NCBI GenBank assembly: GCA_014729135.1
Contig: WJKK01000001.1
Coordinates: 629,407-693,406, forward strand
DNA from: a candidate division WWE3 bacterium
GTDB taxonomy: Bacteria; Patescibacteriota; WWE3; UBA101185; UBA10185
Direction: 5' to 3'
DNA length: 64,000 nucleotides
The notes under the pieces were generated by a model. It did not search any database. It worked only from the letters and a program-made list of their open reading frames with translations, and was not told the DNA's origin. The position numbers and the translations under genes are program-made. This document shows, piece after piece, positions 3,890 to 60,018 of this stretch; the first letter of the stretch is position 1; each line of letters opens with the position of its first letter.

Positions 3890-4070
3890 AGAAACTCTAA
3901 CCTCAGCCCAAACTCCCAGCCAGGGGCTTTCGCAAAGCGAAAGGCGATGGTTGATCAAAATGCGGGCGCCTTAATGCGAGCATTTTGAACTACCCGAGAA
4001 GTCTGTACTCAGACTTTGAGCTGAGCTGCACCCGAAGCATTTGCCGTAGGCAAATGGTGAGTTGTCTTTT
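3890..4070. other. GC-rich cluster of four or more perfect hairpins (possible structured ncRNA or leader) upstream of mpg
   Basis: Perfect hairpins ctttcgc-aaa-gcgaaag, caaaatgc...gcattttg, agtctg-tact-cagact and catttgcc-gtag-ggcaaatg in a locally GC-rich, non-coding stretch. Confidence 0.3.
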
Positions 4071-18175: not shown

Positions 18176-19366
18176 CTAGAAACGTAAGATTGCGCCCAAA
18201 TCATCCTTGAGATTAAGCTCGGTGGACATAGCATCCGTCAACGGCACAATCTCTCCACCTGATAAAAGCGTCTTAACGACAAGAAAGTTCACTAAATCCC
18301 GGTTAGTAAAACCTCTCTCTTCTTCTACTATTGCGCCTCTGTTTTCAACGGAATAGTTGCCCCAAATTGTACGGGACGGATTCACAAACAGCACACTTAT
18401 TTTCTCCTCAAAAGCTGCGGGAGCCACCTTTTCCAGCCCTTCCACAACTTGTTCGGATGCCTTATGCTCCTTATAAGAATCTACAAAGTCCATCCGCTTT
18501 TCATCTATGCGATCTTTAACGATCTTCCAGGCTTCTTTAAGAATGTCCTCTGCAGCAGCTTCCTCCGGATTACCTTCAACATAGTCATCGGCTAAATTCG
18601 GATACTTGCCGAAATCTGAAAACTTGTTGTAAAGCTCTGTATCTGCAGCCAAAATCACTAGAGGCCTCTTATCATCTTCGATATCTGTGACAAAATGGTT
18701 CAGAGCCCAATCTACCTCATCCAGAAAAACCTTCTGCTGTTCATCAATAGCAGACTCCTGACTACCGTGTCCGTGTGCTCTTTGTGTCGGCTTTTCTCCC
18801 GGACGCGCTCCTCCCGCGGGATGTCTCTGAAGCTGGCTCTGAATATCATGAGTCCTTAGGGTTTCTTCTATATCTTCGGGCATTACGGTAGGCTCTTTTT
18901 TCTCCCAGTTGCGATTAACGCCTCTGTAAAGGGTAATGTGAGAATAACTAAGCGCTAAAACGTAATAAGTGGAGGATCCAAAGACGTAGGGGACTAGGGG
19001 CTTAACATTGGGAATGTCACTCACATAAAATTGTGCATCTACATTTTTGGGGAACTTGATCATTTCAGTGTAAGTTTCTGATCTAAAGATTGCTAAGCCG
19101 TCTTTTTGCTCCTGCCAAAAGGTAGTGTTTTGTTGTATTTTTTTGAGGGGTTTTAGCAAGTCATTTATTTTTGAAGCCGGCAGCGTCGACTTTTTAAGGA
19201 GTTTTTCTATTTCGTCGGTTTTATTTTTGAGGTGAATTTGTGCCTTTTCGTTGTTTTGCCAAACCGGACTCGTCGGAATGTAAAGAGAAATAACAGGAGG
19301 TTTGACCTGCCGCTGTAAAAGATTTTTAAGACGTTTTCTGGGATTCTGCTGTTTGGTAATTTTCAT
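18176..19366 (-). CDS. hypothetical protein (possible eRF1/Pelota-like fold)
   Basis: 396 aa. Central Gly/His-rich loop HPAGGARPGEKPTQRAHGHGSQE between two mixed alpha/beta regions; family not securely recognised. Confidence 0.4.
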   Translation of the reverse strand: MKITKQQNPRKRLKNLLQRQVKPPVISLYIPTSPVWQNNEKAQIHLKNKTDEIEKLLKKSTLPASKINDLLKPLKKIQQNTTFWQEQKDGLAIFRSETYTEMIKFPKNVDAQFYVSDIPNVKPLVPYVFGSSTYYVLALSYSHITLYRGVNRNWEKKEPTVMPEDIEETLRTHDIQSQLQRHPAGGARPGEKPTQRAHGHGSQESAIDEQQKVFLDEVDWALNHFVTDIEDDKRPLVILAADTELYNKFSDFGKYPNLADDYVEGNPEEAAAEDILKEAWKIVKDRIDEKRMDFVDSYKEHKASEQVVEGLEKVAPAAFEEKISVLFVNPSRTIWGNYSVENRGAIVEEERGFTNRDLVNFLVVKTLLSGGEIVPLTDAMSTELNLKDDLGAILRF

Positions 19367-19437: not shown

Positions 19438-19465
19438 GGGGACAGTCCTCTTAGAGGACTGTCCC
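19438..19465. promoter_or_regulatory. perfect 13-bp-arm palindrome GGGACAGTCCTCT-TA-AGAGGACTGTCCC abutting a TATAAT box upstream of xseA
   Basis: Inverted repeat read directly from the sequence; TATAAT lies at 19467-19472 and the xseA ATG at 19479. Confidence 0.5.
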
Positions 19466-23886: not shown

Positions 23887-23914
23887 GGGACAGTCCTCTT
23901 AAAGGACTGTCCTC
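23887..23914. promoter_or_regulatory. GGGACAGTCCTCTTAAAGGACTGTCC palindrome (same motif family as at 19438) in the pyk upstream region
   Basis: Inverted repeat ggacagtcct/aggactgtcc read from the sequence. Confidence 0.45.
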
Positions 23915-29413: not shown

Positions 29414-29439
29414 GGGGACAGTCCTCTTAAAGGAATGTC
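29414..29439. promoter_or_regulatory. GGGGACAGTCCTCTTAAAGGAATGTC motif copy in the divergent promoter region
   Basis: Same motif family as at 19438 and 23887, with a degenerate right arm. Confidence 0.4.
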
Positions 29440-29541
29440 AAGTGTAGCGAAGCTACCTTGACTTCTTAGGTAAATGAGAGCGAAGCGATCATTTAGCTAT
29501 GCTGTCCCCTTCCCTCTCATCGAACCTGCTATACTAAAAGT

Positions 29542-32317: not shown

Positions 32318-32405
32318 GAACAGCGGGTAGAAGGAAATTTCTGGTAATGGAATGTGAAGTGGGAGTGGAAGACCCCGCGCGAGATCTTCCACTCAGTATG
32401 ATTAA

Positions 32406-32582
32406 TCAAGCCTTGGTCCAGTAACCCTTCCGGCAGGAAAACCCGCCGGACTGAAGATATGCATTGAGATCCGTGCGAGAAACAGTCTCGCCCGCTCGAC
32501 TCAAGGCCGACAAGATACCTCGAAAGGTAACTTCTTCTCCAGCCAGTAAACTATCCACCAGACTTCTCTGCTTTTCTGTCAT
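32406..32582 (-). CDS. small ORF (58 aa), possible DUF433-like antitoxin component
   Basis: Reverse-strand translation MTEKQRSLVDSLLAGEEVTFRGILSALSRAGETVSRTDLNAYLQSGGFSCRKGYWTKA, within a GC-rich islet. Confidence 0.25.
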   Translation of the reverse strand: MTEKQRSLVDSLLAGEEVTFRGILSALSRAGETVSRTDLNAYLQSGGFSCRKGYWTKA

Positions 32583-32597
32583 GTCTCTCTCCCTTAC

Positions 32598-32801
32598 CTA
32601 TTGACGCACAAACCAAAGAGTACCGCTTCGAGTCGAATGGCCATAAAACGTTTCGGAAGACCTCAGGTAATCGAGGAGTTTCGAGACTGTAATGCCTTGA
32701 TCACCCAAGGACATATGCAAATCAACTACGAGAATGCCTGAAGCGTCCTGTACGGCCTTCAGAATCCTCTTCTTCTGACCAAGAGTAAACAACGTCATCA
32801 C
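32598..32801 (-). CDS. small ORF (67 aa), possible DUF5615-like PIN-type toxin component
   Basis: MTLFTLGQKKRILKAVQDASGILVVDLHMSLGDQ loosely fits the DUF5615 pattern LF...L...L...G..V.HV.DLG....SD; within the same GC-rich islet. Confidence 0.3.
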   Translation of the reverse strand: MMTLFTLGQKKRILKAVQDASGILVVDLHMSLGDQGITVSKLLDYLRSSETFYGHSTRSGTLWFVRQ

Positions 32802-32872
32802 CTCCTTAATGAAAGGTTGTCAACTTAAAAAAGATAATAAAGGGAATTGCGGGCTTTGTAAAGTCCTATAAC

Positions 32873-34504
32873 CTAATCTACCAGATCCTTCCGCTTTAGA
32901 ACCGCCACAAAAGGATCCAAACCACAATGAGAACAAGGGTAATCCAACAAAGAAGCAGGCGGAGAAAAAGCCTTAACCGAAACATAATGCTTCAAAAACT
33001 CCTCTGAAGGAAACTTAAACTCATGACTAGCCTGCACCAACACATAATACTGCGGCAAAAAATTGGATCCGGGGGCCACCACATCATAAGCGCGAAGATA
33101 ATGCTCCGCTACAGTAGCATTATCATTTGTGTAAACCGTCCTAACACCCTCCAGTGAATACAGATAATCACGAACCTGCTTCCATTGCCTATTATAAGGA
33201 AAGCCGTACAAAAATAGATGGTTTTCTTCTTTGTTAGCATGCTCCAGGTGGAAACGTCCTAGCGACACATCTTTCCAGGGATATCCCAAATGAAGTTGCG
33301 GAACATAAATAAACAGGTCGCAAAGGAAGATAAATCCAAGGGTCAAAGTTGCAAGCACTGTTAAAAGGAGTTGTTTTATGCGTGAAGAGGCAAAGGTTTC
33401 ATAAAAACTTTGGAGGCCTAGTGCTGCAAGGATTATAGCCGTAATAAGATAATTGTGAATGTGGGTCCCGGGATTAGAAAAAAGCAGCTCAAAAGTAAGG
33501 AGGCCTATTATTAGCCAAAGCATGAAGGGGGAGGTGTCTTGGGTAAGTGCAGGGGGCTGGTTGGTTGTAGACTCTTTTGTTGCGGGAATCAAACTGCCTA
33601 TGATTACAAATGAAAAACTTAAAAGCAAGTAATAGGGGAGAAAGGGGGTGTAAGTTAGCATTGTATATAGGCTGTTGTTGCGGGCAAAAGTTCCTCCATT
33701 GAGACGCCGGGAAATGTAGCCTGCTGTGTGTTCTGTGAAGTATCCGTTAAGAAAGTAGGGAAGATAAAACGTGCTAAGAATAAGGAGGAGGGGGATTAAA
33801 AAGAGGAATATTTGTGGGAGGATCTTTTTTAGGAACCTTTTAGGGGTGGGGGATTTTAAATTGGGATCAGTAGGAATAAGTTGTTTTAGAAAGCCATAAA
33901 AAATTGGAATGGCAAGAAAGGCGGCATCCCAATGGGAAAGAAAAGCTAGTCCTAGGAAAGCTCCGGAAAGGATTAAGACTAATTTTGATTTTTTGGTGGA
34001 GACTTCCTCTGTAGAGTCAAGCGCATAAGAAAAGCACAAATTTGATAAAAATCCAAAAAGTAATAAGAAACTTTGGTATTGGATAGTGCGCGAAAAGGCA
34101 ATGTAAAAACCTGTTAGAGAAAGGAGAAAAGCTGCTAAGGCAGCTACTTTTTGGTTGTAAATTTTGCGGATCCAAAAGTAGAGGGCAAAAACGGCAAGTG
34201 TTCCTGCTATGGCAAAGGGAAGTCGGGTGTAAAACTCGTGAAAACCGGGATTTGGAATTTGAGGGTTGCTTGAGGGGATATTTGTTTGAAGGAGAATCTG
34301 TTGAGTAACCCAAACTACAAGAAATTGCACAGGTCCTTTGCGCTGGTTTAAGAGAAATTGTTTTGCAGGAACTGTTTTATCCCAATAAAAAGTTTTTGTT
34401 TCGTCACCATAAAAGTTAGAATAACCCAAACCTAAAAATCGGGGAGTTACCGTAACAACAAACAGGAGGGCCAAAACAAACCATTCTTTTTTTGTAACCC
34501 GCAT
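32873..34504 (-). CDS. GT-C fold glycosyltransferase (ArnT/PMT-like)
   Basis: Polytopic. First loop YGDETKTFYWDKT...QRKGPVQF resembles the DE-containing loop 1 of PMT/ArnT. Paralogous to the 39030..40631 gene. Start trimmed to the Met of MRVTKKEW. Confidence 0.6.
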   Translation of the reverse strand: MRVTKKEWFVLALLFVVTVTPRFLGLGYSNFYGDETKTFYWDKTVPAKQFLLNQRKGPVQFLVVWVTQQILLQTNIPSSNPQIPNPGFHEFYTRLPFAIAGTLAVFALYFWIRKIYNQKVAALAAFLLSLTGFYIAFSRTIQYQSFLLLFGFLSNLCFSYALDSTEEVSTKKSKLVLILSGAFLGLAFLSHWDAAFLAIPIFYGFLKQLIPTDPNLKSPTPKRFLKKILPQIFLFLIPLLLILSTFYLPYFLNGYFTEHTAGYISRRLNGGTFARNNSLYTMLTYTPFLPYYLLLSFSFVIIGSLIPATKESTTNQPPALTQDTSPFMLWLIIGLLTFELLFSNPGTHIHNYLITAIILAALGLQSFYETFASSRIKQLLLTVLATLTLGFIFLCDLFIYVPQLHLGYPWKDVSLGRFHLEHANKEENHLFLYGFPYNRQWKQVRDYLYSLEGVRTVYTNDNATVAEHYLRAYDVVAPGSNFLPQYYVLVQASHEFKFPSEEFLKHYVSVKAFSPPASLLDYPCSHCGLDPFVAVLKRKDLVD

Positions 34505-34532
34505 TTTATTTAACATACACATACATACTAAC

Positions 34533-34669
34533 AAGGATTATCCTTCGATAGAAACGAGCATCTCCCTTAGGTAGAATGTCCTCGCTGATTCGAACAAGGA
34601 TTATCCTTCAAAAAATTAGATAATTCCCTTAGATAGAACACTCCCGCAGATTTTAGTAAGGATAATCCT
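34533..34669. promoter_or_regulatory. three spaced copies of the palindrome AAGGATTATCCTT (third copy AAGGATAATCCT) within ~45-nt direct repeats, upstream of the GT-C gene
   Basis: Copies at 34533-34545, 34596-34608 and 34658-34669, each followed by TCCCTTAGRTAGAA about 25 nt downstream. Confidence 0.45.
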
Positions 34670-35656: not shown

Positions 35657-36493
35657 TTAGTTTCCTTTCTTGGAGGCGGTTTTTGAGGCTCCATTTGCAG
35701 CAGCGCCACCACCGCCAGCATCGCCGGAAGACTTAGCGTTACCTCCAAATCGCCTCTCCCTGCCTGCAAAATCAATTAATGCTTTTTTAAATTCAGCTTC
35801 TTTAAAGTCAGGCATGTGCACGTCAGCAAAGTAGAATTCGCTGTAAGCCGATTGCCATGATAAATATCCGCTTAATCGTTGTTCTCCGGAGGTTCTGATG
35901 ATTAAATCAGGGTAGGGATAGGGTTGGCCGGCTGTGTCTAAGTAGTCGGCAAATTTGTAGATTGGGTATTTTCCTTTGTACTTGGCGACTTCTTGGGTGA
36001 GCTCTTGAGGAGTTAGTTTTCCGGATTCTATGTCTTTGGTGGCTTTGGTAACTGCACGGAGGATCTCGTCGTGTCCGCCGTAGTCTAGGGCTATGTTTAA
36101 GATGTGTTTTGTGAAGTGGGCGGTTTTTTGTTCGGCTTCTTTTAAGATTTCTTGAAGTCCTCCGGGGATTCTATCTTTTCTCCCAAGATGAACAATTCGG
36201 GCCTCACTCTTAAGTGCTTCCTCCAAGTTTTTAGAAATGTTTTCTTCATACAAACGCATCAAATAATTAACCTCTGTTTCTGATCGATTCCAATTTTCTG
36301 TAGAAAACGCCCAAAGCGTAAAAGTATGAATCCCTAAATCACGTGCCTGTCTAATCACGGCATTAGCAGCTTGAAATCCTTTTGTGTGACCGCGTAATGT
36401 AGGAAGATTGCGAGAGTGAGCCCATCTTCGGTTGCCATCAGGAATAATAGCCACGTGTTTAGGTAATTTAGTTTTATCAACTGAGAAAGTCAT
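35657..36493 (-). CDS. uppS: undecaprenyl diphosphate synthase
   Basis: HVAIIPDGNRRWA and TLWAFSTENWNR are cis-prenyltransferase signatures. Gly/Ala-rich C-terminal tail. Confidence 0.85.
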   Translation of the reverse strand: MTFSVDKTKLPKHVAIIPDGNRRWAHSRNLPTLRGHTKGFQAANAVIRQARDLGIHTFTLWAFSTENWNRSETEVNYLMRLYEENISKNLEEALKSEARIVHLGRKDRIPGGLQEILKEAEQKTAHFTKHILNIALDYGGHDEILRAVTKATKDIESGKLTPQELTQEVAKYKGKYPIYKFADYLDTAGQPYPYPDLIIRTSGEQRLSGYLSWQSAYSEFYFADVHMPDFKEAEFKKALIDFAGRERRFGGNAKSSGDAGGGGAAANGASKTASKKGN

Positions 36494-36569
36494 GAGATTA
36501 GTATATCACTAGTAGAGTAAACCCAGAGGAAGGGATGACTCCAAAAGTATGATAAAATCGTAGACGTCT

Positions 36570-36646
36570 GCGAGAGTAGCTCAGCTGGCTAGAGCATCTC
36601 CCTTCCAAGGAGAGGGTCGCGGGTTCGAATCCCGTCTCTCGCTCCA
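36570..36646 (+). tRNA. tRNA-Gly (anticodon TCC)
   Basis: Manual cloverleaf: acceptor gcgagag/ctctcgc, D-arm gctc..gagc, anticodon stem tctcc/ggaga with loop cttccaa, T-arm gcggg-ttcgaat-cccgt, 3' tcca. Confidence 0.85.
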
Positions 36647-36962
36647 TTTGTGTTCGCAACGCGAACCCAAATGGCTGATCATCCGCCTACGGCGGATGAA
36701 CTGCCTAACAAGTCCGTAGGACTTGTTACATCCATCGAAATGCTCGCGTTCGCTCGCATTTGCGATGGCCCGTACAACTTTTGACAAAGTTGTACGGTCG
36801 CAAACAAGAGTAATTAGCATTTCGATGACTCAGGTAAATAGGAGCGTACTAAAGCGACTATTTAGCTGTGCCTAACAAGTCGCAATGCGACTTGTTATAG
36901 TCTACAACTTTTAGCAAAGTTGTACGGTCACAAACAAAAATAACTAGCATTTCGATGACTTA
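36647..36962. repeat. block of consecutive hairpins with an internal ~95-135 nt tandem duplication, immediately downstream of tRNA-Gly
   Basis: Hairpins gttcgc-aac-gcgaac, catccgcc-tac-ggcggatg, taacaagtcc-gta-ggacttgtta, ccgtacaacttt-tga-caaagttgtacgg. The second unit repeats taacaagtcgc-aat-gcgacttgtta and acaacttt-tag-caaagttgt. Both units end with aaacaa..ta..tagcatttcgatgact. Confidence 0.5.
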
Positions 36963-37016
36963 ACAAAATGAAAAAAAGTTGAGAGGCTACTATAAAAATT
37001 TATAAAACACAAAAAT

Positions 37017-37481
37017 ATGACAGAAACACTATTCGACAAAATAATAAACAACGAAATAGAAAATTGGAAAGTATGGGAAAGCAAAACACATCTAGCCTTT
37101 TTAACTCCCTTTCCTAACACCCTAGGACTAACTATTGTGATACCAAAGAAAAACATTGGAGATTACGTGTTTTCTTTAGAGCAGAAGGATTATCAAGAAC
37201 TCCTGGATGCTACAAAAGAAGTAGCCAAAGTCCTGGAAAAAGCTTTCGAGACTACCCGCGTAGCTATGATCTTTGAAGGAACAGGAGTAGCTCACGTACA
37301 CGCAAAACTGTATCCTCTGCATGGAGAACTTGCAAATGCCACAGATGTTTGGAGTCATCATCAGGAATTTTACCCAGAATATCTAGGATACTTAAGTACT
37401 GTAGAGGGCCCTAAAATGCCTAAAGAGAAGCTAGATGAAATTCAAAAGAAAATACTAAAGGTGCAAGAGAATATAGTTTAG
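37017..37481 (+). CDS. HIT-like family protein with atypical H-x-H-x-K motif
   Basis: LAFLTPFPNTLGLTIVIPKK...MIFEGTGVAHVHAKLYP aligns to the HIT core, but the third His is replaced by Lys. Confidence 0.5.
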   Translation: MTETLFDKIINNEIENWKVWESKTHLAFLTPFPNTLGLTIVIPKKNIGDYVFSLEQKDYQELLDATKEVAKVLEKAFETTRVAMIFEGTGVAHVHAKLYPLHGELANATDVWSHHQEFYPEYLGYLSTVEGPKMPKEKLDEIQKKILKVQENIV

Positions 37482-38647
37482 ACCCCAATCTCCCCAATAC
37501 TTCTCCAATTAACAAGACTATTATCACTAAAATCACTCTCCATATCCCCCGTATAAACCACAAAACCATTACCTACCTTAAACTGCTCACTCTCTAAACC
37601 CTTAAAGTAACGTAAACCCCCCAAAAACTCCGTATTAAAAGTAGCGCTAGACTTAATTTCAATAGGAGTTATTTCGGAACCCTTATCCAAAAGTAGATCA
37701 ACCTCATTACCGCTGCTATCCCTGAAAAAATAAACCTTAGAGCTGGAACCTATATTAAGTTTTTGCTTATACAAATCCATGACCACCATATTCTCAAAAA
37801 GGCCTCCCAGAGCAAAATGATTCTGCAGCTCCTTAACCGAGTCAATCCCTAAAAGGTAAGCAAGCAAGCCTACATCAGTAAAGTAAATTTTAGGGGACTT
37901 AATTATGCGCTTCCCAAAATTATCATAGTAGGGCTGCAAACGAAAAATTATATAACTTGCCTCCAAAATGGAAAGCCATGCTTCAACTGTTTTATGAGAA
38001 ACTCCTGCAACATTGCCCAACTGAGTTAAATTAACTAGCTGACCAACACGTCCTGCCAAAAGCTGCAGAAACCTCTCAAAGCTCGCCAAATCGCCAATGT
38101 TTTTAATATTGCGAACGTCACGCTCAACATAGGTTCTAACATATCCGGAGTAATAAGTTCTGACGTCCTGCTTTTTGTCATGCAGACCCGGATAAAATCC
38201 TTTTAGTAGGGCTTCTCTGTAATCGGTTGGAAGAATTTTATGATCCTGCATCTCATCTATTGTTAAAGGAAAAAGCGTTAAAACTGCCACCCTTCCGGCC
38301 AAACTTTGACTTACTTTTTCCGAGAGCAGGAGGTTTTGCGATCCCGTAATTATGAATTTACCCGGCTTAAAATCCTCATCTATTGAAACTTGAATATAGG
38401 AAAGGAGTTCCGGATACTTTTGTACCTCGTCTATTATAATTCCACCCTCTACGTTGTTAATAAAGGAAGCAGGATCCTCTCTAATAGCATTAAGCTCTAC
38501 TAGGTTTTCCAGGTTGACGTATTGGTGGTTTGGAAATGTATCTTTTACAAGAGTGGTTTTACCCGATTGGCGTGGGCCTGTTAAGGAAACTACTCCAAAT
38601 TCTTTGGCTGCTTTTTTTAGGTAGGGGGTTATTGAGCGTTTTATCAT
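37478..38647 (-). CDS. AAA+ ATPase (AAA_14 plus DUF4143 type)
   Basis: Walker A GPRQSGKTTL near the N-terminus and a Walker B-like IIIDEVQ; typical length for this family. Confidence 0.65.
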   Translation of the reverse strand: MIKRSITPYLKKAAKEFGVVSLTGPRQSGKTTLVKDTFPNHQYVNLENLVELNAIREDPASFINNVEGGIIIDEVQKYPELLSYIQVSIDEDFKPGKFIITGSQNLLLSEKVSQSLAGRVAVLTLFPLTIDEMQDHKILPTDYREALLKGFYPGLHDKKQDVRTYYSGYVRTYVERDVRNIKNIGDLASFERFLQLLAGRVGQLVNLTQLGNVAGVSHKTVEAWLSILEASYIIFRLQPYYDNFGKRIIKSPKIYFTDVGLLAYLLGIDSVKELQNHFALGGLFENMVVMDLYKQKLNIGSSSKVYFFRDSSGNEVDLLLDKGSEITPIEIKSSATFNTEFLGGLRYFKGLESEQFKVGNGFVVYTGDMESDFSDNSLVNWRSIGEIGV

Positions 38648-38815: not shown

Positions 38816-38891
38816 GCCCCAGTAGCTCAGAGGATAGAGCAGTTCCCTTCTAAGGAAAAGGCCGGGGGTTCGATTCCCTCCTGGGGCGCCA
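38816..38891 (+). tRNA. tRNA-Arg (anticodon TCT)
   Basis: Manual cloverleaf: acceptor gccccag/ctggggc, D-arm gctc-agaggata-gagc, anticodon stem gttcc/ggaaa with loop cttctaa, T-arm ggggg-ttcgatt-ccctc, 3' gcca. Confidence 0.85.
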
Positions 38892-38918
38892 AAAAGATTC
38901 CGCTTCGCGGAACTTTTT
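38892..38918 (+). terminator. hairpin with T-run directly after tRNA-Arg (aaaaagattccgc-ttc-gcggaacttttt)
   Basis: Near-perfect 12-bp stem ending in a T5 run. Confidence 0.4.
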
Positions 38919-38926
38919 GGTCCAAG

Positions 38927-38956
38927 CAAATACGAGCGTACTAACGCGAGTATTTG
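38927..38956. repeat. CAAATACGAGCG-TACTAA-CGCGAGTATTTG hairpin element (family shared with 41243..41274 and 3956..3987)
   Basis: Near-identical sequence in inverted orientation at 41243-41274; related arms at 3956-3987. Confidence 0.45.
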
Positions 38957-39029
38957 TTTGTTACCTCACAAGTTGTACTCAACTTGTGAAAGGCGAACTT
39001 TACAAAGCTCAAAGCATTGCTTTAACACC

Positions 39030-40631
39030 TCACTCAACAACATCCCCCGAAAAAAACAAAAAACCATCCCCCTTAGCCAACACCTCTCCACTAGGACACT
39101 CCATAGAACTTAAACTCTGCGGATCCTCTATATAAATAAAAACTTCAGGATCCTCATTCCAACCAAATCCCTGCATGTAATACTTGGCCAAGCGATACTT
39201 CTCATTAGAATAGTAAGTTTCAACTCCCAAATCCAAAGCCACCTTACGAACATCCTTCCAGTTACGACTATAAGGAAATCCAAAAATGCCCTCCACACGT
39301 TCACCGGAACTAATATTTGCAGGCATAAAACCCAAAATGTACTTTTTAGCATGCCAAGGATATTCGGGAGTAGTGTCAATAAATGCCTGAAAATTAAAGG
39401 AGGTTGTAGTAAAAAGCACTAAAACAAGCAGTGCAAAAAGAAAATTGCGAACAATACCTTTTTCCTTTAAAACAGCAGCCAGCTGACTAGCAAACAAAAT
39501 ACTAGCCGGTATAAAAACCACATAAATATGTGTCAACGCCTTTTCCATAACAAAAAAGTAGGCTACTAAACTTAATACAAACCAGCCCACAATTAAATTG
39601 TTAAAATTAAACTCCCGGCCAAAAAAGTAACTAACAAGCACGGCCAAACCAAAAACCAAACTAGATATATATAGCAGTTCATTACCCGCTCCCCGGAAAT
39701 ACCGAAAAAGACCTAACAAAAACAAGCCAATAACTAAAATACCACGATGCTTGCTAATAATTTGCTGCCGATAAATCCATAGGAAGCAGCCCACCAAGGA
39801 CAAAATCAAAAACTCCAAGGGATGATACATTTTTAAGATCTTTATCGAATAAAAAATGTTGTCATAAATGAAATCTGATTGAATTCGAGCAAAAAGCAAA
39901 TAGCGAATTATTTCCGAGGGTTCCGGCGTTCTCAGGAAAAGCACAGTAAAGTAAATTGCGGGCATTATAAGAGTAGTAGCAATGTATATGAAAGCAGGCT
40001 TAAAGCGCTTTGAAGCCATTAAAAGGAAGAGTATGGGAAGTATGAAGCTAAAAGAGTCGTAGTGAAACAGAAGGCCAACTCCGGAAAATACGCCGGATAA
40101 AATTAGGAGTCTTTTCTGTTTGGATTTAGCGGGAGCGGCTAACCCATCCAACTGAGCATATTTCAGCATTAGCCAACAAACGATAACTGAAATTAAAATT
40201 ACAAAGACTTGATACTGCACTATTCGAGAAAAAGCTATCATTAAGCCGGATAAAGAAATTAAGGAAGTGGCCAAAAGGGCCGTCATTTTATCTTTATGTT
40301 TCCTTACAAAAAAGTAAAGAAGAGGCAATAAAGCGATACCGGTTAAAGCAAAAGGTAAGCGAACATAAAGTTCAATGTTTTTTAGGTTCTCTACGTTGAA
40401 ATCATAGGCAAAGATGTTTGCCAAAGCTGAAACCGCATATTGTCCGGGGCCCTTCGTTCGCGTAAAGATGAACTTAAAAAATTCCTGCTCCCCGAAGAGG
40501 TAGTTTTGGGCAGCCACTTCATCCCCTTGAAAATCTGAATAGCCTAATTTTGCCAATCTGAAATAAGCGCCTAATAAGATAATGAGAATTATAAAAATTT
40601 TTTCGGCTGATTGAGGAAATTTCTTATTCAC
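39030..40631 (-). CDS. GT-C fold glycosyltransferase (ArnT/PMT-like)
   Basis: 533 aa polytopic. Loop 1 QGDEVAAQNYLFGEQEFFKFIFTRTKGPGQYAV carries a DE motif. Paralogue of the 32873..34504 gene. Confidence 0.6.
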   Translation of the reverse strand: MNKKFPQSAEKIFIILIILLGAYFRLAKLGYSDFQGDEVAAQNYLFGEQEFFKFIFTRTKGPGQYAVSALANIFAYDFNVENLKNIELYVRLPFALTGIALLPLLYFFVRKHKDKMTALLATSLISLSGLMIAFSRIVQYQVFVILISVIVCWLMLKYAQLDGLAAPAKSKQKRLLILSGVFSGVGLLFHYDSFSFILPILFLLMASKRFKPAFIYIATTLIMPAIYFTVLFLRTPEPSEIIRYLLFARIQSDFIYDNIFYSIKILKMYHPLEFLILSLVGCFLWIYRQQIISKHRGILVIGLFLLGLFRYFRGAGNELLYISSLVFGLAVLVSYFFGREFNFNNLIVGWFVLSLVAYFFVMEKALTHIYVVFIPASILFASQLAAVLKEKGIVRNFLFALLVLVLFTTTSFNFQAFIDTTPEYPWHAKKYILGFMPANISSGERVEGIFGFPYSRNWKDVRKVALDLGVETYYSNEKYRLAKYYMQGFGWNEDPEVFIYIEDPQSLSSMECPSGEVLAKGDGFLFFSGDVVE

Positions 40632-40746
40632 TTTTCCAGTCTATATTAAAAGGAGAGTTGGTTAAAGAATGGAGAGTTTCTAGGATGCCGGAAAATAAAC
40701 GGAGAAGTTGGCACCAACGTGGAGAGTCTTTTGCTACAATAAAGCT

Positions 40747-41157
40747 ATGAAAACAACTACAAAAAAGCCAAATGATTGTATATTCTGCAAAATCGGCAAA
40801 AAAGAAGCTCCCGCTGAAGTAATTTGGGAAAATGACAAGTTTCTAGCCTTTCTAGACATCTTTCCCGTTGTTCCGGGGGCCACTGTAGTAATCCCAAAAA
40901 CTCACCATGAGAGCTATATTAAAAATGTCGATGAAAATACTACATGTGCTTTAATGGAGGCATCAAAGGAGGTTATGGAGCTTTTGGATTCTTCGCTGGA
41001 GGATAGTGTTGGAACGAAGTTGATTTTTGAGGGGCTGGAGGTGCCTCATTTGCATGCAAAGTTGTGGCCAATGTATCCGGGAGTGAGGGAAGCGACTCCG
41101 GAGGAGCGTGTTGATCCTGAGAAGTTGAGGGAAATAGGTGAAAAGATCAGGGGTTGA
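40747..41157 (+). CDS. HIT family protein (second paralogue with H-x-H-x-K)
   Basis: N-terminal CIFCKI motif, then FLAFLDIFPVVPGATVVIPKTHHES...KLIFEGLEVPHLHAKLWP. Start set to the Met of MKTTTKK. Confidence 0.6.
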   Translation: MKTTTKKPNDCIFCKIGKKEAPAEVIWENDKFLAFLDIFPVVPGATVVIPKTHHESYIKNVDENTTCALMEASKEVMELLDSSLEDSVGTKLIFEGLEVPHLHAKLWPMYPGVREATPEERVDPEKLREIGEKIRG

Positions 41158-41242
41158 TGTATAATCTTTTTGCGCTAAACAAGAGAAGTAAGTAAGACGA
41201 GGTTTGTTCGTCAGGGTCGCTCTGCGACACCTGACGGGAGGT

Positions 41243-41274
41243 CAAAATACTCGCGTTAGCACGCTCGTATTTTG
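41243..41274. repeat. inverted copy of the CAAAATACGAGCG...CGCGAGTATTTTG hairpin element, upstream of tRNA-Leu
   Basis: The reverse complement caaaatacgagcgtgctaacgcgagtattttg nearly equals the element at 38927-38956. Confidence 0.45.
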
Positions 41275-41282
41275 ATCACCAT

Positions 41283-41309
41283 AAAAAGTTTTCTGCGAAA
41301 ACTTTTTAA
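41283..41309 (+). terminator. hairpin aaaaagttttc-tgcg-aaaacttttt abutting the tRNA-Leu 5' end (probable terminator of the upstream HIT gene)
   Basis: Perfect 11-bp A/T-rich stem with a T-run. Confidence 0.35.
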
Positions 41310-41398
41310 GGGCGAGTGGCGGAATAGGCATACGCGACAGACTTAAAATCTGTTGAGAGTTAAATCTCGTGTGGGTTCGAGTCCCACCTCGCCCACCA
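41310..41398 (+). tRNA. tRNA-Leu (anticodon TAA), long variable arm
   Basis: Acceptor gggcgag/ctcgccc, anticodon stem acaga/tctgt with loop cttaaaa, extended variable arm tgagagttaaatctcgtg, T-arm tgggttcgagtccca, 3' acca. Confidence 0.85.
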
Positions 41399-41461
41399 GA
41401 GGCTTTTGCAAAGCAAAAGGAGCTGGTTCAAACAAATAACACCATCCGCTATAATAAAACC

Positions 41462-47541: not shown

Positions 47542-47739
47542 ATGTACAATTGGTCAACGGATGAAAAGAAGCTTAAAAATCACCCTCAAAAACACAAACT
47601 CTGGAAACTGGAGCAACTAATCAACTTTGGCCTTGGAAAAGAAAGGTTAAACCGAAAAGATCTTAAAAGAAATCTGAAAAAACTAACAATAGACCCTCAA
47701 AAAAAGAAATATCTTCAATTCCTACTAAAAAAGGCCTAA
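47542..47739 (+). CDS. small basic protein, possible cognate partner (antitoxin-like) of the downstream AbiEii-like gene
   Basis: 65-aa Lys-rich ORF ending at the ATG of the 47739 gene (4-nt overlap ATGA). Confidence 0.25.
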   Translation: MYNWSTDEKKLKNHPQKHKLWKLEQLINFGLGKERLNRKDLKRNLKKLTIDPQKKKYLQFLLKKA

Positions 47740-48410
47740 TGAGTCTACTTACAAAGCAACAGAAAAAGTTTTTACACTTATTTTCGCAGGAGAAACTTTT
47801 AACAAAAAGGTTCTACCTTACAGGAGGAACCGCCCTTATAGAGTATTACATTCCCTATAGATACTCAGATGACTTGGACTTTTTTTCCGAGGCAGAAATC
47901 AACATCGACGCCGTTTTAACTTTTTTTAAATCAATCAAAAAAGAACTAGGCTATAAAGAATTCGATTACAACACTTCGTATAACCGAAATTTAATCTTCT
48001 TAAACTTTGGAGATTATGTTCTAAAAACCGAATTCACATACTTTCCTTTTCCGCCAATTCAGATAAATAAGCCTAAAGAAGGCATCCAAATAGATAGTCT
48101 CATTGATATAGCTGTAAACAAACTCTTTACTATATATCAAAACCCAAGGGGGCGTGATTTCATGGATTTATATATGATTCAAGAGAAAGAGAATTTTGAC
48201 ATGGAGCTTTTAATATCGCGTGCTCGTGCTAAATTTGACTGGCATGTTGATCCATTAAAACTGGGGGCGCAATTTATGTTAGCTAAGGAAACTAAGGACG
48301 AGCCCGTTTTGGTAAAAGATCTAAAAAGAGAGAATTGGGAAGACTATTTCATTGAAGCTGCAAAAAGCTTAGAGAGTGAAATTTTCGAAAGTAAGGATTC
48401 CCAGACTTAG
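47739..48410 (+). CDS. AbiEii/AbiGii-like nucleotidyltransferase (type IV TA toxin family fold)
   Basis: FYLTGGTALIEYYIPYRYSDDLDFF matches the GGTAL....HR.S.DLDF nucleotidyltransferase motif. Confidence 0.55.
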   Translation: MSLLTKQQKKFLHLFSQEKLLTKRFYLTGGTALIEYYIPYRYSDDLDFFSEAEINIDAVLTFFKSIKKELGYKEFDYNTSYNRNLIFLNFGDYVLKTEFTYFPFPPIQINKPKEGIQIDSLIDIAVNKLFTIYQNPRGRDFMDLYMIQEKENFDMELLISRARAKFDWHVDPLKLGAQFMLAKETKDEPVLVKDLKRENWEDYFIEAAKSLESEIFESKDSQT

Positions 48411-48448: not shown

Positions 48449-50074
48449 TTATTTACACTTATAAATTTTCCAATAGGGGAGGGATCTAAAGCGTATTTTT
48501 GTTTCAAGTGTGCAGTGGGAATAGTCGGGAGGTAGTTCTTCATGATTTGCAGCCACTAAATATTCCACAGTCCAACCGTTAGGTAAATCCTGATTTAACG
48601 TGTAGATCTTTCCTTTTACAAAAGGACGCAGCCGATGCACCTTGTTAGATGTAATTACTATTTTAAGATCAGAGGGATTGTCTTTGGAGTTTAAGTAATC
48701 ACCAACATTACTACATAACGAACAGCCAAACTGATCTTTCCCTTTGATGCTAGGATATAAAAGATAATTTGGAAAATAATAGGCAGTAGTGGAAACGGCA
48801 AGTAAAAAACTTGCTAATAAAAAGTATTTTTTATTCTTATTGGAGAAGGTTTTTTTTATTTGAACTAAAAGATACCCTCCAAAAAAAGCTAAAAAGGGAA
48901 TCAAAGGCAAAAGATAGCGATCCATTTTTTGAGCAACTAAAGACATCTGTACAAAATAGAAAAGTGCATAACAAAGAATTAAAATTGCTGATTTCTCGCG
49001 CGAGAAAACTTTATTAAAACTTCTTAATAATTCCTTAATATTCCTAGAGGATAAGTCAAACGAAGTAAAAATGTCACTAAGAAAATTACGAATATAAAGA
49101 GCAATACCTAAAAAAGCAGAAACCAGAAATACAAGAGTTAAATCTCTATACAGGGGCTCAAAGTAATCAAAAAACCCATTAAAAATTTCGGAGGAGGCAT
49201 CAGCACCATCGCGACCAACTCGCGCTAAAAACAATCCCTCGTTAATAAAAATAATTTTAAGGTTTTCCAGCGGTTCTATCCACATATCAGGGAAAACTGC
49301 TACAAAAGTAAAAGCACATGTAAAAAACCAAATTAAAACCGCTTTAAGATAAAACCAGAAATTACGACGTTGTGTAATGAAATCCGAAAAAAGTGCTAAA
49401 ACAAAATAAGGCAGTAAAAAAATAGCGGAGGATTTAGAAAGCAATGCCAATCCTGCGAAAACTCCCGAAAAAATAAGCCATTTCCATTTAGGTACTTCAG
49501 AAGAACTCAAAAAAAGTAAAAGCAAAAGTGCGGAAATTCCCATAAACGCCGTAACAGTGCTGTCTGCATGAAAATTCCGGGAAAGGCCAATATAAAAGGG
49601 TTGCAAACCGAACAACAAAACCGAGAAAAAAGCTAACTTCTTAGAAAAAAGCTTAGAAACAACTAAATAGTAAACCAAAATAAATCCCAAACTAACAAGA
49701 ATTAAAGGAGCAATTACAGCCGTATGAACCAAATGGAAAGTGTCGTAAGTCCATATTTGAGGGCGAAAACCATAATGCCACTCGTATAAATTCAAGAACG
49801 TCTCCAAACTTAACCCGGAAAGCCAATGAACCGTAATTCCCGGCTTGGGATTTTGCAAAGTTTCGCCCCAATCATGATCCTGAATTTCGGAAATAAACTC
49901 CTCTGTACGGGAATACCAAAACTGGGCATCATTGTTTATGGAGGCGCGTCCCAAACGATAGAAACTAAAGAAGGTTATTAAGAGGAAAAGAACAACAAAG
50001 AGTTTGTCGTAAAAGGAAAATTGAGATGCAAAAGTACTGACATTTTCCTTAAAGTTTTTGCAAAAAGAAACCAT
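48449..50074 (-). CDS. GT-C fold glycosyltransferase (ArnT/PMT-like)
   Basis: 541 aa polytopic with an ArnT-like N-terminal loop; C-terminal soluble domain of ~100 aa. Confidence 0.55.
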   Translation of the reverse strand: MVSFCKNFKENVSTFASQFSFYDKLFVVLFLLITFFSFYRLGRASINNDAQFWYSRTEEFISEIQDHDWGETLQNPKPGITVHWLSGLSLETFLNLYEWHYGFRPQIWTYDTFHLVHTAVIAPLILVSLGFILVYYLVVSKLFSKKLAFFSVLLFGLQPFYIGLSRNFHADSTVTAFMGISALLLLLFLSSSEVPKWKWLIFSGVFAGLALLSKSSAIFLLPYFVLALFSDFITQRRNFWFYLKAVLIWFFTCAFTFVAVFPDMWIEPLENLKIIFINEGLFLARVGRDGADASSEIFNGFFDYFEPLYRDLTLVFLVSAFLGIALYIRNFLSDIFTSFDLSSRNIKELLRSFNKVFSREKSAILILCYALFYFVQMSLVAQKMDRYLLPLIPFLAFFGGYLLVQIKKTFSNKNKKYFLLASFLLAVSTTAYYFPNYLLYPSIKGKDQFGCSLCSNVGDYLNSKDNPSDLKIVITSNKVHRLRPFVKGKIYTLNQDLPNGWTVEYLVAANHEELPPDYSHCTLETKIRFRSLPYWKIYKCK

Positions 50075-51449: not shown

Positions 51450-53306
51450 TTAATCAGTAACGCAATAACCGCCAATAACAGGAGTCTTACCAAGTAAACT
51501 GTAAATTGGAGAAAAGTAAGAATTCTTGTAACTAAAATCCTCCTCATGCCACTCCAAAGGTTCAACGCCTGCCGTAGCTTTATTCTCAAACACCTCCGGG
51601 TTCTTATAGAAATAATTAAAGGTTCTACTGTTTTCTGTGCGATTTAAAAATGACAGTAAAATTCCGGGATTTTCCGGTTCAATTACATCTTTTTGAACAA
51701 AACATTCATAATTCAAGCCTCCCGGAATTGCTTCCATTACATCCGCGGGATTATCAAACCTGCCAACATGCATGTAACGCGTAAAGGAACCGCGAACAAA
51801 GACATTAGTAACAAGATTATGCTCCTCCTGAAATTTATAACCCAGCTTCCAGCGCAACTCCTCTTCGGTGTAAAAATCCCAAGTTAAAAACACTGTTACT
51901 ATAGCCAAGAAAGAAAGAGCAATAAACCCGCAGCTACGAGCATAAAAACCCTTTAGATCTACCAACAAACCACTCCTTGATAAGTAAACACCCACTAGAA
52001 GCGTCAAAAAAGGAAAGGCAGCAATAAAATAACGATCATAAAAATCGCTGGTTAAAAGGCTCCCAACAAAAACAACTCCAAAAAGGCCAAGAACAGTTAA
52101 ACTTAAAGAAAGCATTTGTAAATCAAAATCCTTGCGACAACAAGAGGCAATAAAACCTTCCAGCCAGTCAATAAATAAGTAAACTCCCAACAAAAAAGTG
52201 AATGATAAGTAAACGCTTAGACCCAACTTAAAAGGGATGTTGTCAAAAAGGCTAATCCAGTGGGTGAAATCGGATTTTGTGTAAAAACCTTCAATGTAAA
52301 AGACGTTGCCAACCGCAAAAATATCCTTTTGATAAAAAAGCGGAAAAATTAACAAAGCGGCAACAAGACTAATCCATTTAACTTTTACAGGAATCTTTTT
52401 GTAAGCCACATAAACAAGTGGTGAAAGGAAAAAGGCCACATAAGGAATTAAATAGGGATACATCTTAATTTGCTTATAGAAATTTTCTAAATCAACGGGA
52501 TTGCCTAAAATACGCGTTTCTGAAGCTTCAACATATTGTGGCCATTTTGTGTACAAGAACAAAAGGCTTATAAAAGGCACTACTAAAATAACGAGCTCCT
52601 TCCACTTAAACTTTTTTGTGTGAAATTGATCATGTGCCAAAACTAAAAAGTAGGCTATTAAAAAGACGAGGCCAAATTGGCGGATATAAAGACTAGCGCC
52701 TGCTAAAAGACTTGCTACTAAGAGGTGGGTAATATTTCGTTTTTCTAAATAGTGAAGGAAAAGGTAAAGACTCCAGATGGCAAAGGTTAAAAAGTAGATT
52801 TCGGTCATGTAGGAAAGAGCAGAGGTGAAAAAGAGGGGATTAAAGATGATTGTTAGTAGTGTTAGGGCTGTTAGGGTTTTTTTAGTTTTTTTGGGCTGCA
52901 GTTTTTGGAGGGTTTTGTAGGCACCAAATAAGAAAGCAAAGCTAAAAAGGATGGTTAAAATGCGGAGGGACAGGAAGCTAAATCCAAAAAGTTTTGTCCA
53001 GAGAATTCCTAAAAGGCCTTGCAGAACAAAGGCTGTGTCAATTAGGCGGTTTTTTGCAAAGATGCCCTGTGAAAAGAGGCGGGTGTGAATGTAGAAGTCC
53101 CAATCGTCGTTTACAGCGTGGTTTCCCCAAGGGCTTACAAGGAGGATGGCTAGGATGTAGAGAGCGAGGGTTATGGTTAAGGGGTTTTTGAGGATTGGGG
53201 GGAGGGAGGAGGTTTTTGGGATTTTGACTTTATGGAGAATTCTACAAAGGGGGTTTTGTGATTTTTGAAAGATTTTCATTTTTTTTAGTTTTGCAGGAAG
53301 TTTCAT
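51450..53306 (-). CDS. large polytopic membrane protein, GT-C-like
   Basis: 618 aa with 12 or more TM helices and a C-terminal soluble domain; loop HAVNDDWDFYIHTRLF near the N-terminus. Confidence 0.5.
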   Translation of the reverse strand: MKLPAKLKKMKIFQKSQNPLCRILHKVKIPKTSSLPPILKNPLTITLALYILAILLVSPWGNHAVNDDWDFYIHTRLFSQGIFAKNRLIDTAFVLQGLLGILWTKLFGFSFLSLRILTILFSFAFLFGAYKTLQKLQPKKTKKTLTALTLLTIIFNPLFFTSALSYMTEIYFLTFAIWSLYLFLHYLEKRNITHLLVASLLAGASLYIRQFGLVFLIAYFLVLAHDQFHTKKFKWKELVILVVPFISLLFLYTKWPQYVEASETRILGNPVDLENFYKQIKMYPYLIPYVAFFLSPLVYVAYKKIPVKVKWISLVAALLIFPLFYQKDIFAVGNVFYIEGFYTKSDFTHWISLFDNIPFKLGLSVYLSFTFLLGVYLFIDWLEGFIASCCRKDFDLQMLSLSLTVLGLFGVVFVGSLLTSDFYDRYFIAAFPFLTLLVGVYLSRSGLLVDLKGFYARSCGFIALSFLAIVTVFLTWDFYTEEELRWKLGYKFQEEHNLVTNVFVRGSFTRYMHVGRFDNPADVMEAIPGGLNYECFVQKDVIEPENPGILLSFLNRTENSRTFNYFYKNPEVFENKATAGVEPLEWHEEDFSYKNSYFSPIYSLLGKTPVIGGYCVTD

Positions 53307-57031: not shown

Positions 57032-57727
57032 TCAGAGAGGACTTTTAATATTTCTTAATTTCGGATTTGTAACTTGAGTATATCTTTGTGTGGTTCTAAT
57101 ATTTTGATGACCGAGTAATTCTTGAACATACCTAATATCAACTCCGTTTTCTAATAAGTGAGTTGCAAAACTATGTCGTAGTGAATGAAATGTCGCCTCC
57201 TTCTTAATTTCGGCGTTTCTCATAGCATTAGTAAAAATTTTTTGTGCTGTACGAGTTGTAAGTTTTCCCCCTCGTTCACTTGGAAAAACATATTCGTTTG
57301 GCTTCCCAGAATTAATTATCATTTTTAGATCATTTTTAATCTTCTCTGGGATAATTGTTATTCTATCCTTTTTCCCCTTGGCTTTCTTAATATGAAGTGT
57401 AAGATTATTAATATCTACGTCTTTGACTTTTAAGTTGACAACTTCACTAACTCTTAATCCTGCTCCATATGCTACGGAAAGGATCAATCTATGCTTATTA
57501 TTATTTGTTACTTCAGTCAATCTTTTGATTTCTTTACGATTTAGTATTACTGGAAGACTTTTGTTGTGTTTCGCAGATTTAATATCTATTTTGGAGGAAG
57601 TTTTTACAACGTTATAGTAATAAAACTTAATTGAATTCAAATATAGATTCCTTGTCTTAGCAGAGAGTCCTTTATCTGAACAGGTGAGTAGAAAGTTTCG
57701 TATGTTATCGATATCTAACTGCTTCAA
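57032..57727 (-). CDS. tyrosine-type site-specific recombinase/integrase (short, 231 aa)
   Basis: GLRVSE (catalytic Arg), HSLRHSFATHLL (H-x-x-R) and LGHQNIRTTQRYTQV (Tyr nucleophile). TTG start. Much shorter than IntI/XerC. Confidence 0.75.
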   Translation of the reverse strand: MKQLDIDNIRNFLLTCSDKGLSAKTRNLYLNSIKFYYYNVVKTSSKIDIKSAKHNKSLPVILNRKEIKRLTEVTNNNKHRLILSVAYGAGLRVSEVVNLKVKDVDINNLTLHIKKAKGKKDRITIIPEKIKNDLKMIINSGKPNEYVFPSERGGKLTTRTAQKIFTNAMRNAEIKKEATFHSLRHSFATHLLENGVDIRYVQELLGHQNIRTTQRYTQVTNPKLRNIKSPL

Positions 57728-59808: not shown

Positions 59809-60018
59809 AGTTACAAACATAGTCCGCTATGGCCGACCATTTGTCGTTGCGAAGCAACTACAAATGCTTAACAAAATACAAGCACCCTTCCTTTTCTTTA
59901 AAATGGGGGCGTAGTATTTTGTTATGCCTGCAAGTGTTGCAAAGCAACCTTGCAGAACATCGATTAAGAGCAAAGCATTTTTGACGAGCTAATCAGAACA
60001 ACCCAAACTTTTTCAATG
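59809..60018. repeat. attC-like junction: Repeat A variant (AGTTACAAACATAGTCCGCTATGGCCGACCA), two GTTGC-NNN-GCAAC palindromes, and a Repeat B variant (CAGAACAACCCAAACTTTTTCAATG)
   Basis: 29/31 identity to Repeat A; palindromes gttgcgaagcaac (59846-59858) and gttgcaaagcaac (59936-59948). Confidence 0.5.

Follow-up and report, generated by a model that had tools for sequence, protein, structure and literature searches.

What is the dense row of hairpins that stands behind the tRNA-Gly gene in a 64,000-nucleotide stretch (the window) of the genome of a candidate division WWE3 bacterium (contig WJKK01000001.1)? An earlier note, made from the letters of this stretch, had described perfect hairpins in tandemly duplicated units and offered three readings: a structured noncoding RNA (ncRNA) co-transcribed with the tRNA, the scar of an attachment site, or a family of hairpin repeats. 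At least four families of hairpin modules are mixed in the block, which is neither one RNA gene nor an attachment scar. With moderate confidence, we read it as a mosaic resembling the bacterial interspersed mosaic elements (BIMEs) and made of palindromic modules specific to one lineage within WWE3, which are scattered over its intergenic DNA with a concentration at tRNA flanks and would act as transcript punctuation in the tRNA-Gly trailer.

Eight hairpins (H1 to H8) lie behind tRNA-Gly, where six or more had been proposed, in a block that spans 36644 to ~36927. The block had been thought to begin right after the tRNA 3' end; its actual start is the tRNA's own CCA at 36644, with which the 5' arm of H1 opens. 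The tRNA and the parts of the block are:

36570-36646, plus strand: tRNA-Gly (anticodon UCC) with an encoded CCA end, found by ARAGORN and matching the Rfam tRNA model with 70.1 bits
36644-36674, plus strand: H1, CCATTTG-T-GTTCGC-aac-GCGAAC-C-CAAATGG, with 14-nt arms and one T.C mismatch, conserved; family F1
36679-36699 (extended 36673-36705), plus strand: H2, a perfect 9-bp stem in the module GGCTGA-[9-bp stem]-ACTGCC
36706-36728, plus strand: H3, TAACAAGTCC-gta-GGACTTGTTA, with H7 as its paralogue
36730-36769 (arms 36732-36768), minus strand: H4, CATCGAAATGC...GCATTTGCGATG, imperfect, an inverted tandem-G.A hairpin
36770-36797, plus strand: H5, CCGTACAACTTT-tgac-AAAGTTGTACGG, 12 bp
36798-36830, plus strand: tail 1, TCGCAAACAAGAGTAATTAGCATTTCGATGACT, complementary to the 5' arm of H4
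36828-36871 (hairpin 36831-36868), plus strand: H6, an imperfect tandem-G.A hairpin with the flanks CTCAGG and GCTGTGC, matching the covariance model R1 with 52.7 bits
36873-36897, plus strand: H7, TAACAAGTCGC-aat-GCGACTTGTTA, 11-12 bp, a paralogue of H3
36903-36969 (H8 at 36903-36924, 9 bp), plus strand: H8, TACAACTTT-tagc-AAAGTTGTA, and tail 2

The tRNA-Gly trailer folds strongly. On the plus strand its minimum free energy is -130.9 kcal/mol, compared with -76 +/- 5 for shuffled sequences (z = -11.1), and the z-score of the minus strand is -9.8. Five of the 11 distinct perfect hairpins (stem of at least 9 bp) in the window fall within this 315-nt stretch. The description of the hairpins as perfect holds for five of the eight, while the other three are imperfect.

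The two related units of the earlier description are seen as a 67-nt direct repeat at 85% identity (36773-36839 and 36903-36969, the second copy being H8 and tail 2), together with TGCCTAACAAGTC, which is present twice in the block. The proposed shared tail, TAGCATTTCGATGACT, is also present twice. The units are not arranged head to tail, as a tandem duplication would have them; H6 separates them, and Tandem Repeats Finder returned nothing. The extra hairpin of the first unit is H4, which lies within an insertion of ~37 nt relative to unit 2 and is an inverted copy of the G.A family. Read on the minus strand, H4 is CCATCG-C-AAATGC-GA-GCG-AA-CGC-GA-GCATTT-CGATGG, and it matches R1 with 55.6 bits (E = 3e-12). 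Positions 36733-36744 are perfectly complementary over 12 nt to both 36816-36827 and 36946-36957. Judged by the family consensus, the shared tail looks like the 3' half (GCATTT-CGATGA) of a decayed plus-orientation G.A hairpin, which would explain its perfect 12-nt complementarity to H4.

Had elements integrated at tRNA-Gly and left an attachment-site scar, a block sitting at the tRNA 3' end and a downstream gene content that varies between relatives would fit. This origin was rejected and is highly improbable, as no match of at least 11 nt to the 3' part of tRNA-Gly occurs elsewhere in the window, no integrase lies beside the tRNA (the single integrase-family gene, which is Xer-like, is found 20 kb off at 57032-57727), and the same modules occur at tRNA-free sites.

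The module families differ in their fixed positions. Read on its G.A strand, the G.A family has the consensus CCAACG-T-AAATRY-GA-GYG-loop-CRC-GA-RYATTT-CGTTGG. Across 14 aligned copies its G and A positions vary little or not at all, and three core pairs co-vary (AU 8 / GC 6; CG 8 / GC 2 / UA 2 / AU 1; CG 10 / UA 3). R1 finds six G.A hairpins in the window, at 3950 (+), 29464 (+), 36730 (-), 36828 (+), 38920 (+) and 41237 (-), and a paralogue of H6 with compensatory changes lies at 29464-29502. Family F1 has an apical GC-RAA-GC hairpin and a pyrimidine-pyrimidine mismatch, and often begins on the CCA of a tRNA. The GGCTGA-stem-ACTGCC hairpins, to which H2 belongs, form another family; their conserved base carries T.T and A.A mismatches, and the stem varies freely with pairing always kept. 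The CCCGA-stem-GAG hairpins form a family as well, and we read them as having tandem G.A at the base.

A search for other copies of the units, as earlier advised, found that the modules recur elsewhere in the window and in the loci of relatives. The window holds ~25 module hairpins of 21-44 nt, all within intergenic gaps. Outside the tRNA-Gly block they lie at the following sites:

38816-38891: tRNA-Arg, with the same kind of hairpins on its flank
38889-38989, plus strand: the tRNA-Arg array, with a CCA-including H1 (38889-38920), a G.A hairpin (38920-38963) and a TACT-loop hairpin (38966-38989)
41310-41398: tRNA-Leu, with the same kind of hairpins on its flanks
41209-41426, plus strand: the tRNA-Leu hairpins, upstream at 41209-41236, 41237-41280 (an inverted G.A hairpin) and 41282-41308, downstream a CCA-including H1 (41396-41426)
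3920-4061, plus strand: a non-tRNA cluster with an F1-like hairpin starting CCA, a G.A hairpin (3950-3993) and CCCGA...GAG hairpins (3993-4020 and 4031-4061)
29435-29501, plus strand: a non-tRNA two-module block (F1 and a G.A hairpin) inside a split GGGGACAGTCC...CTGTCCCC palindrome
59837-59955, plus strand: a non-tRNA cluster with the F1 hairpins CCATTTGT-C-GTTGC-gaa-GCAAC-T-ACAAATG and CTGCAAG-T-GTTGC-aaa-GCAAC-C-TTGCAG

The modules favour the flanks of tRNA genes. Flanks of tRNAs make up 16% of the intergenic DNA of the window but, by our own tally, contain ~15 of its ~25 intergenic hairpins (binomial 1e-6), and the enrichment is also seen when gaps are counted (4/8 vs 5/53; Fisher 0.013). 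At 14 of 25 tRNAs of the clade the first hairpin of the trailer includes the CCA, compared with 16/214 and 1/8 elsewhere (~7%). The hairpins are typically bounded by CCA...TGG, with a linker of 1 nt. With the same modules at other tRNAs, in non-tRNA gaps of the window and in related genomes, the third of the proposed readings, a hairpin repeat family, describes the block well.

Relatives were gathered by a protein-based scan, which gave 80 Microgenomates-type loci, and by a scan for tRNA-Gly 3' ends, which gave 120 metagenome loci. UppS of the window is 100% identical to an NCBI protein from an 864,248-bp WWE3 contig, and its next relatives are just 65-68% identical. The arrangement of UppS, tRNA-Gly, tRNA-Arg and tRNA-Leu is retained only in L001 and L002 among the 80 Microgenomates-type loci. 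The suggested comparison of regions downstream of tRNA-Gly showed that L001 (with L160 identical to it), L002, L150, L185, L087 and L136 have arrays built of these modules, and six related Patescibacteria/WWE3 assemblies carry modules. Of 123 tRNA-Gly trailers, ~95 have no perfect hairpin of at least 8 bp in 330 nt, and the window tops them all with five. Outside the window, R1 matches the G.A hairpin in L001, L002, L150 and L160, and L185 has a match to a regular expression. No G.A hairpin was found in 78 other Microgenomates loci, in L201-L209 or in ~95 other tRNA-Gly loci (L181-L200 by regular expression alone). The UppS loci of L201-L209 lack both the tRNA and the hairpins and are therefore uninformative. 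Clade sequence of 120 kb contains 13 copies of family F3 and 8 of F1; in 1.69 Mb of other sequence there are 2 doubtful copies of F3 and 1 copy of F1. H6 has a near-identical copy behind tRNA-Gly in L002, in a different array context, and variants of the H2 module occur in L002, L087 and L185. Among viral contigs, the G.A hairpin pattern and H2 have 0 matches each; H3 has 3 and H5 has 8, every one with unrelated flanks, and these are thus taken as chance palindromes.

Two side observations concern the shapes of the hairpins. Some loops recur on unrelated stems, namely G-TACT-C tetraloops and GC-(A/G)AA-GC triloops (38966-38989 and 3993-4020; also in L001, L002 and L087). GCGAAGC, one form of the latter, is an unusually stable DNA mini-hairpin. 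The recurring loop types are a hint that the hairpin tips are under selection or share a common descent. A further module type, found at 59866-59926 of the window and in the tRNA-Gly trailers of L087 and L185, has a long stem AACAAAATAC...GTATTTTGTT around an internal hairpin with a 13-17-nt loop.

The tRNA-Gly trailer of L001 is homologous to H1-H5 of the window, hairpin for hairpin. The trailer aligns at z = 20.9 over shuffles, whereas the DNA upstream of the tRNA is unalignable (z = 0.1). Across H1-H5 of the window, L001 and L150, 60 of 60 pairs are Watson-Crick in every sequence, with 18 double-sided changes and 0 one-sided ones. Compensatory pairs between L001 and the window number four in H1 and three in H3. 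In H2 of L001 the flanks are unchanged while seven of the nine stem pairs are replaced on both sides, and the H5 of the window recurs almost unchanged in L001 and L150.

The arrays also turn over as whole modules. Between L001 and L150, whose flanks are 99-100% identical, an 84-nt indel bounded by TCCA comprises H1-H3 and nothing more (L001 5614-5697, minus strand); in L150, which lacks these hairpins, H4 is left sitting on the CCA. The block at 29435-29501 sits within a GGGGACAGTCC palindrome and splits it; at 19439 and 23888 this palindrome is intact. Array content differs among L001, L150, L002, L185, L087 and L136. The modules have been duplicated, inverted, decayed, deleted and inserted, while the hairpins stay almost perfectly Watson-Crick paired.

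Turnover of this kind bears on whether the modules are purely selfish palindromic DNA, similar to the repetitive extragenic palindromes (REPs) and REPINs or to the cyanobacterial small dispersed repeats (SDRs). Such elements would be non-autonomous and mobile, or spread by recombination, and would have no host function; they would build up at any site that tolerates insertions, with tRNA flanks as permissive or preferred targets. The G.A copies in both orientations, the nesting of a block within another palindrome (29435-29501), the whole-module indel between the near-identical strains L001 and L150, the decayed half-copies, the strand-symmetric Watson-Crick pairing and the clusters in divergent promoter regions are all consistent with this. 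On the other hand, the order of H1-H5 and their linkers are kept at 67% UppS identity while adjacent intergenic DNA is unalignable, a CCA-seated hairpin survives the deletion in L150, the window has no transposase candidate, and the G.A module is absent from IMG/VR. We consider a purely selfish nature unlikely, though possible.

At the level of nucleic acid, the arrays look like DNA palindromes rather than structure selected on one RNA strand, since both strands of 19 array regions fold equally well, G.U pairs are scarce on both (30/918, or 3.3%, in sense and 50/962, or 5.2%, in antisense) and one-sided changes are missing. A strand test for an RNA signature, comparing G.U with A.C pairs and sense with antisense folding energy, found no bias. 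The search of Rfam that the earlier note proposed gave matches to tRNA models alone (Rfam 15; gathering threshold, with the region searched to E <= 10 and six related loci to E <= 1). Of the proposed ncRNA co-transcribed with the tRNA, one part stands: co-transcription is plausible and the structure is strongly conserved. One discrete RNA gene is disfavoured because the modules are shuffled, inverted, duplicated and deleted among relatives, a strand signature is lacking and no Rfam family is found. A single conserved ncRNA gene was likewise rejected on the variation of architecture among relatives, the G.U content on both strands and the equal folding energies.

A looser form of this idea is that the trailer, or hairpins cut out of it, are functional structured RNAs, stable and small, which a protein binds via the tandem G.A or the mismatches, and which serve, for example, as a regulator, a sponge or a tRNA-like minihelix. 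The very strong fold, the co-variation alongside invariant non-canonical positions, the conservation far above neutral, the CCA...TGG bounds with their short linker, and the four of six G.A copies in the window whose G.A strand is sense to the adjacent tRNA or downstream gene argue for it. It is nevertheless improbable, given that stability and G.U content have no strand bias, that H4 and the copy upstream of tRNA-Leu are inverted, that array content varies between relatives, and that Rfam is empty for the window and the relatives alike.

We favour punctuation of the transcript by the modules. The array would be transcribed as the 3' trailer of tRNA-Gly and fold into a row of very stable hairpins, the first of which would sequester the CCA end. 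The row may stop or slow read-through from the strongly transcribed tRNA gene, and the hairpins may block exonucleases at the ends made by tRNA excision.

Several points weigh against this overall reading of the block. Terminators would have little purpose between divergent genes, yet two of the non-tRNA clusters are found there. A pattern scan of 36300-37200 for canonical terminators (a hairpin followed by a U-tract) found 0 sites. Among the 59 open reading frames (ORFs) of the window there is no Y1/RAYT (PF01797-type), IS200/IS605 or IS110 transposase. The perfect pairing without G.U intermediates can be explained by template switching during replication, which, according to the available text of PMC8794818, can keep hairpins without selection. 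A purely neutral view is hard to square with non-canonical positions that are invariant, linkers that are conserved and a level of conservation well above that of neighbouring DNA; this conservation and these positions could, however, mean a specific protein partner.

Alternatively, the array could serve solely to terminate transcription of the tRNA gene, its hairpins being factor-dependent or 'I-shaped' terminators in a row. The array lies directly behind the tRNA, a likely promoter of the HIT gene (TTGAGA-16-TATAAA) is found downstream of it, T-runs are present on some H1 hairpins at other tRNAs, and some first hairpins have A-tract/T-tract arms (tRNA-Arg in the window; tRNA-Gly and tRNA-Arg in L002). 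H1 of tRNA-Gly, though, has no T-run, the terminator scan of 36300-37200 was empty, and hairpins also occur upstream of tRNA-Leu and in divergent intergenic regions. A role confined to termination is consequently quite improbable.

Tandem stems in a genome of the candidate phyla radiation (CPR) also call to mind the stem-loop arrays of tandem interspaced guide RNAs (TIGR). Such arrays are found in CPR bacteria and phages and consist of tandem, variable palindromic stems with little conservation from unit to unit (PMC12045711; 10.64898/2026.09.09.750476). The block in the window shares the CPR host and the tandem, variable, always palindromic stems, and its CCA...TG bounds have the letters of box C and box D (PMC12045711). 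As guides, the stems would need dual spacers. Unlike TIGR arrays, the arrays of the window have no dual spacers, no box C-N9-box D intervals and no large loop; their loops are 3-6 nt, which leaves no room for two spacers of 8-12 nt, and the stretches of the G.A hairpin that would have to be its spacers are conserved and mutually complementary. Our own implementation of the published stem-loop rule (10.64898/2026.09.09.750476) gave 0 units on either strand of the window, and 0-3 in shuffles. A Pfam search of the 59 ORFs found no Nop/Tas family (Nop domain in 0/59), though divergent Tas proteins may escape Pfam. The arrays are moreover scattered and lie at tRNAs, rather than adjoining one effector gene. 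A TIGR-type array is thus hardly credible. More speculatively, the arrays may be the RNA half of an undescribed CPR-specific ribonucleoprotein. tRNA processing would free the hairpins (...TGG-N-CCA, similar to an acceptor minihelix), a protein would read the G.A or pyrimidine mismatches, and the variable stems would carry specificity. We regard this as a long shot; if true, the system would be a relative in spirit of the box C/D and TIGR guides, with a different architecture.

Of known repeats, REP/BIME elements are the closest in kind. In the available text of PMC3733652 and PMC2817692, these are short extragenic imperfect palindromes, clustered and in both orientations, for which roles in termination and in protection of mRNA 3' ends have been proposed. 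Like the REP, BIME and REPIN elements of Proteobacteria, the modules here are 20-45 nt long, intergenic, and clustered as mosaics in both orientations; fixed asymmetric positions give the copies a polarity, and the stems co-vary between lineages. Opposite orientations are seen in H4 (-) and H6 (+) and in the copies upstream of tRNA-Leu (-) and downstream of tRNA-Arg (+), with most arrays direct and not strictly alternating. Unlike REPs, the modules lack the GTAG/CGTC tag and begin with GGCTGA, CTCAGG or, in most cases, CCA or CCC; a CGTC start occurs in only two hairpins, at 41209 of the window and in L002. The arrays also differ in that they mix several unrelated module families, are strongly tied to tRNA flanks, where the CCA end carries the first hairpin, and belong to a CPR bacterium with a genome below 1 Mb. 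REPs are palindromes of 20-40 bp and typically exceed 100 copies per genome; the count here is the ~25 module hairpins in 64 kb, six of them G.A hairpins. In REP/RAYT systems the Y1 transposase gene is usually flanked by REPs; the 59 ORFs of the window include no such gene.

Other families of small repeats share further traits. Pneumococcal BOX elements, cyanobacterial SDRs and Rickettsia palindromic elements have few module types in variable number and order, stable hairpins and nested insertions, as do the arrays described here, but their sequences and hosts are different. To our knowledge, none of them is tied to tRNA 3' ends or starts with CCA. The 3' external transcribed spacer (3'ETS) of leuZ in Escherichia coli is a structured, conserved tRNA 3' spacer that is freed by tRNA processing and acts as a sponge for small RNAs (sRNAs). 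Whereas 3'ETS-leuZ is one short sequence that pairs with sRNAs, the tRNA-Gly trailer holds a multi-hairpin repeat mosaic that is also present away from tRNAs.

Several hundred bases of conserved hairpin repeats at tRNAs are an unexpected ballast in the tiny, tightly packed genomes of Patescibacteria. In the literature, our searches turned up no earlier description of such repeats for this phylum. Should the modules punctuate or protect transcripts, they would offer a clue to how termination and tRNA maturation work with a reduced toolkit of RNases and termination factors, a question to which the seating of the first hairpin on the CCA also belongs. If they are mobile, they would form a REP-like repeat system. 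They are also a caution that tandem palindromic stems in CPR genomes are not always TIGR arrays.

The genes around the arrays have been reshuffled. tRNA-Gly is flanked by the divergent UppS gene (35657-36493, minus strand) and by a HIT-family gene (37017-37481), after which comes an AAA_14/DUF4143 ATPase gene. The window has two HIT-family genes (37017-37481 and 40708-41157), and its tRNAs are separated by the ATPase gene (37478-38647, minus strand) and a PMT_2 glycosyltransferase gene; L001 and L002 have a single HIT gene, between tRNA-Arg and tRNA-Leu. The intervening genes and the layout of the HIT genes indicate that the tRNA neighbourhood has been rearranged. In L001 a small DUF7768 gene (4997-5413, minus strand) lies between the array and tRNA-Arg, and L150 lacks this gene. 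A run of N at 4765-4866 of L001 is bordered by duplicated partial tRNA-Arg; the repeats most likely left a gap there in assembly or scaffolding.

The palindrome interrupted at 29435-29501 is an element in its own right. It is 25-27 nt long, has the form GGGACAGTCCTCTTA(G/A)AGGACTGTCCC and occurs three times (19439-19465, 23888-23912 and 29414-29509), each copy between the starts of a divergently transcribed gene pair. The neighbouring genes are a baeRF-family gene and exonuclease VII, pyruvate kinase, and an unknown 501-aa gene and a DUF4349 gene. A common regulator may use the palindrome as its operator.

At 555 nt, the gap at 32318-32872 is the longest intergenic one in the window, and it contains several G+C-rich hairpins. 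As a candidate ncRNA it was rejected, having no credible match in Rfam; it probably holds small unannotated ORFs on the minus strand instead. Among the other genes of the window are two AbiEii-type toxin genes (47739-48410 and 63236-63919), a Cas4-like/DUF2779 nuclease gene (683-2197) and a gene of the baeRF (bacterial archaeo-eukaryotic release factor) family (18176-19366); together they give this very small genome a content of defence or conflict type. The window also carries four paralogous PMT_2 (dolichyl-phosphate-mannose-type) glycosyltransferase genes, at 32873-34534, 39030-40631, 48449-50074 and 51450-53306.

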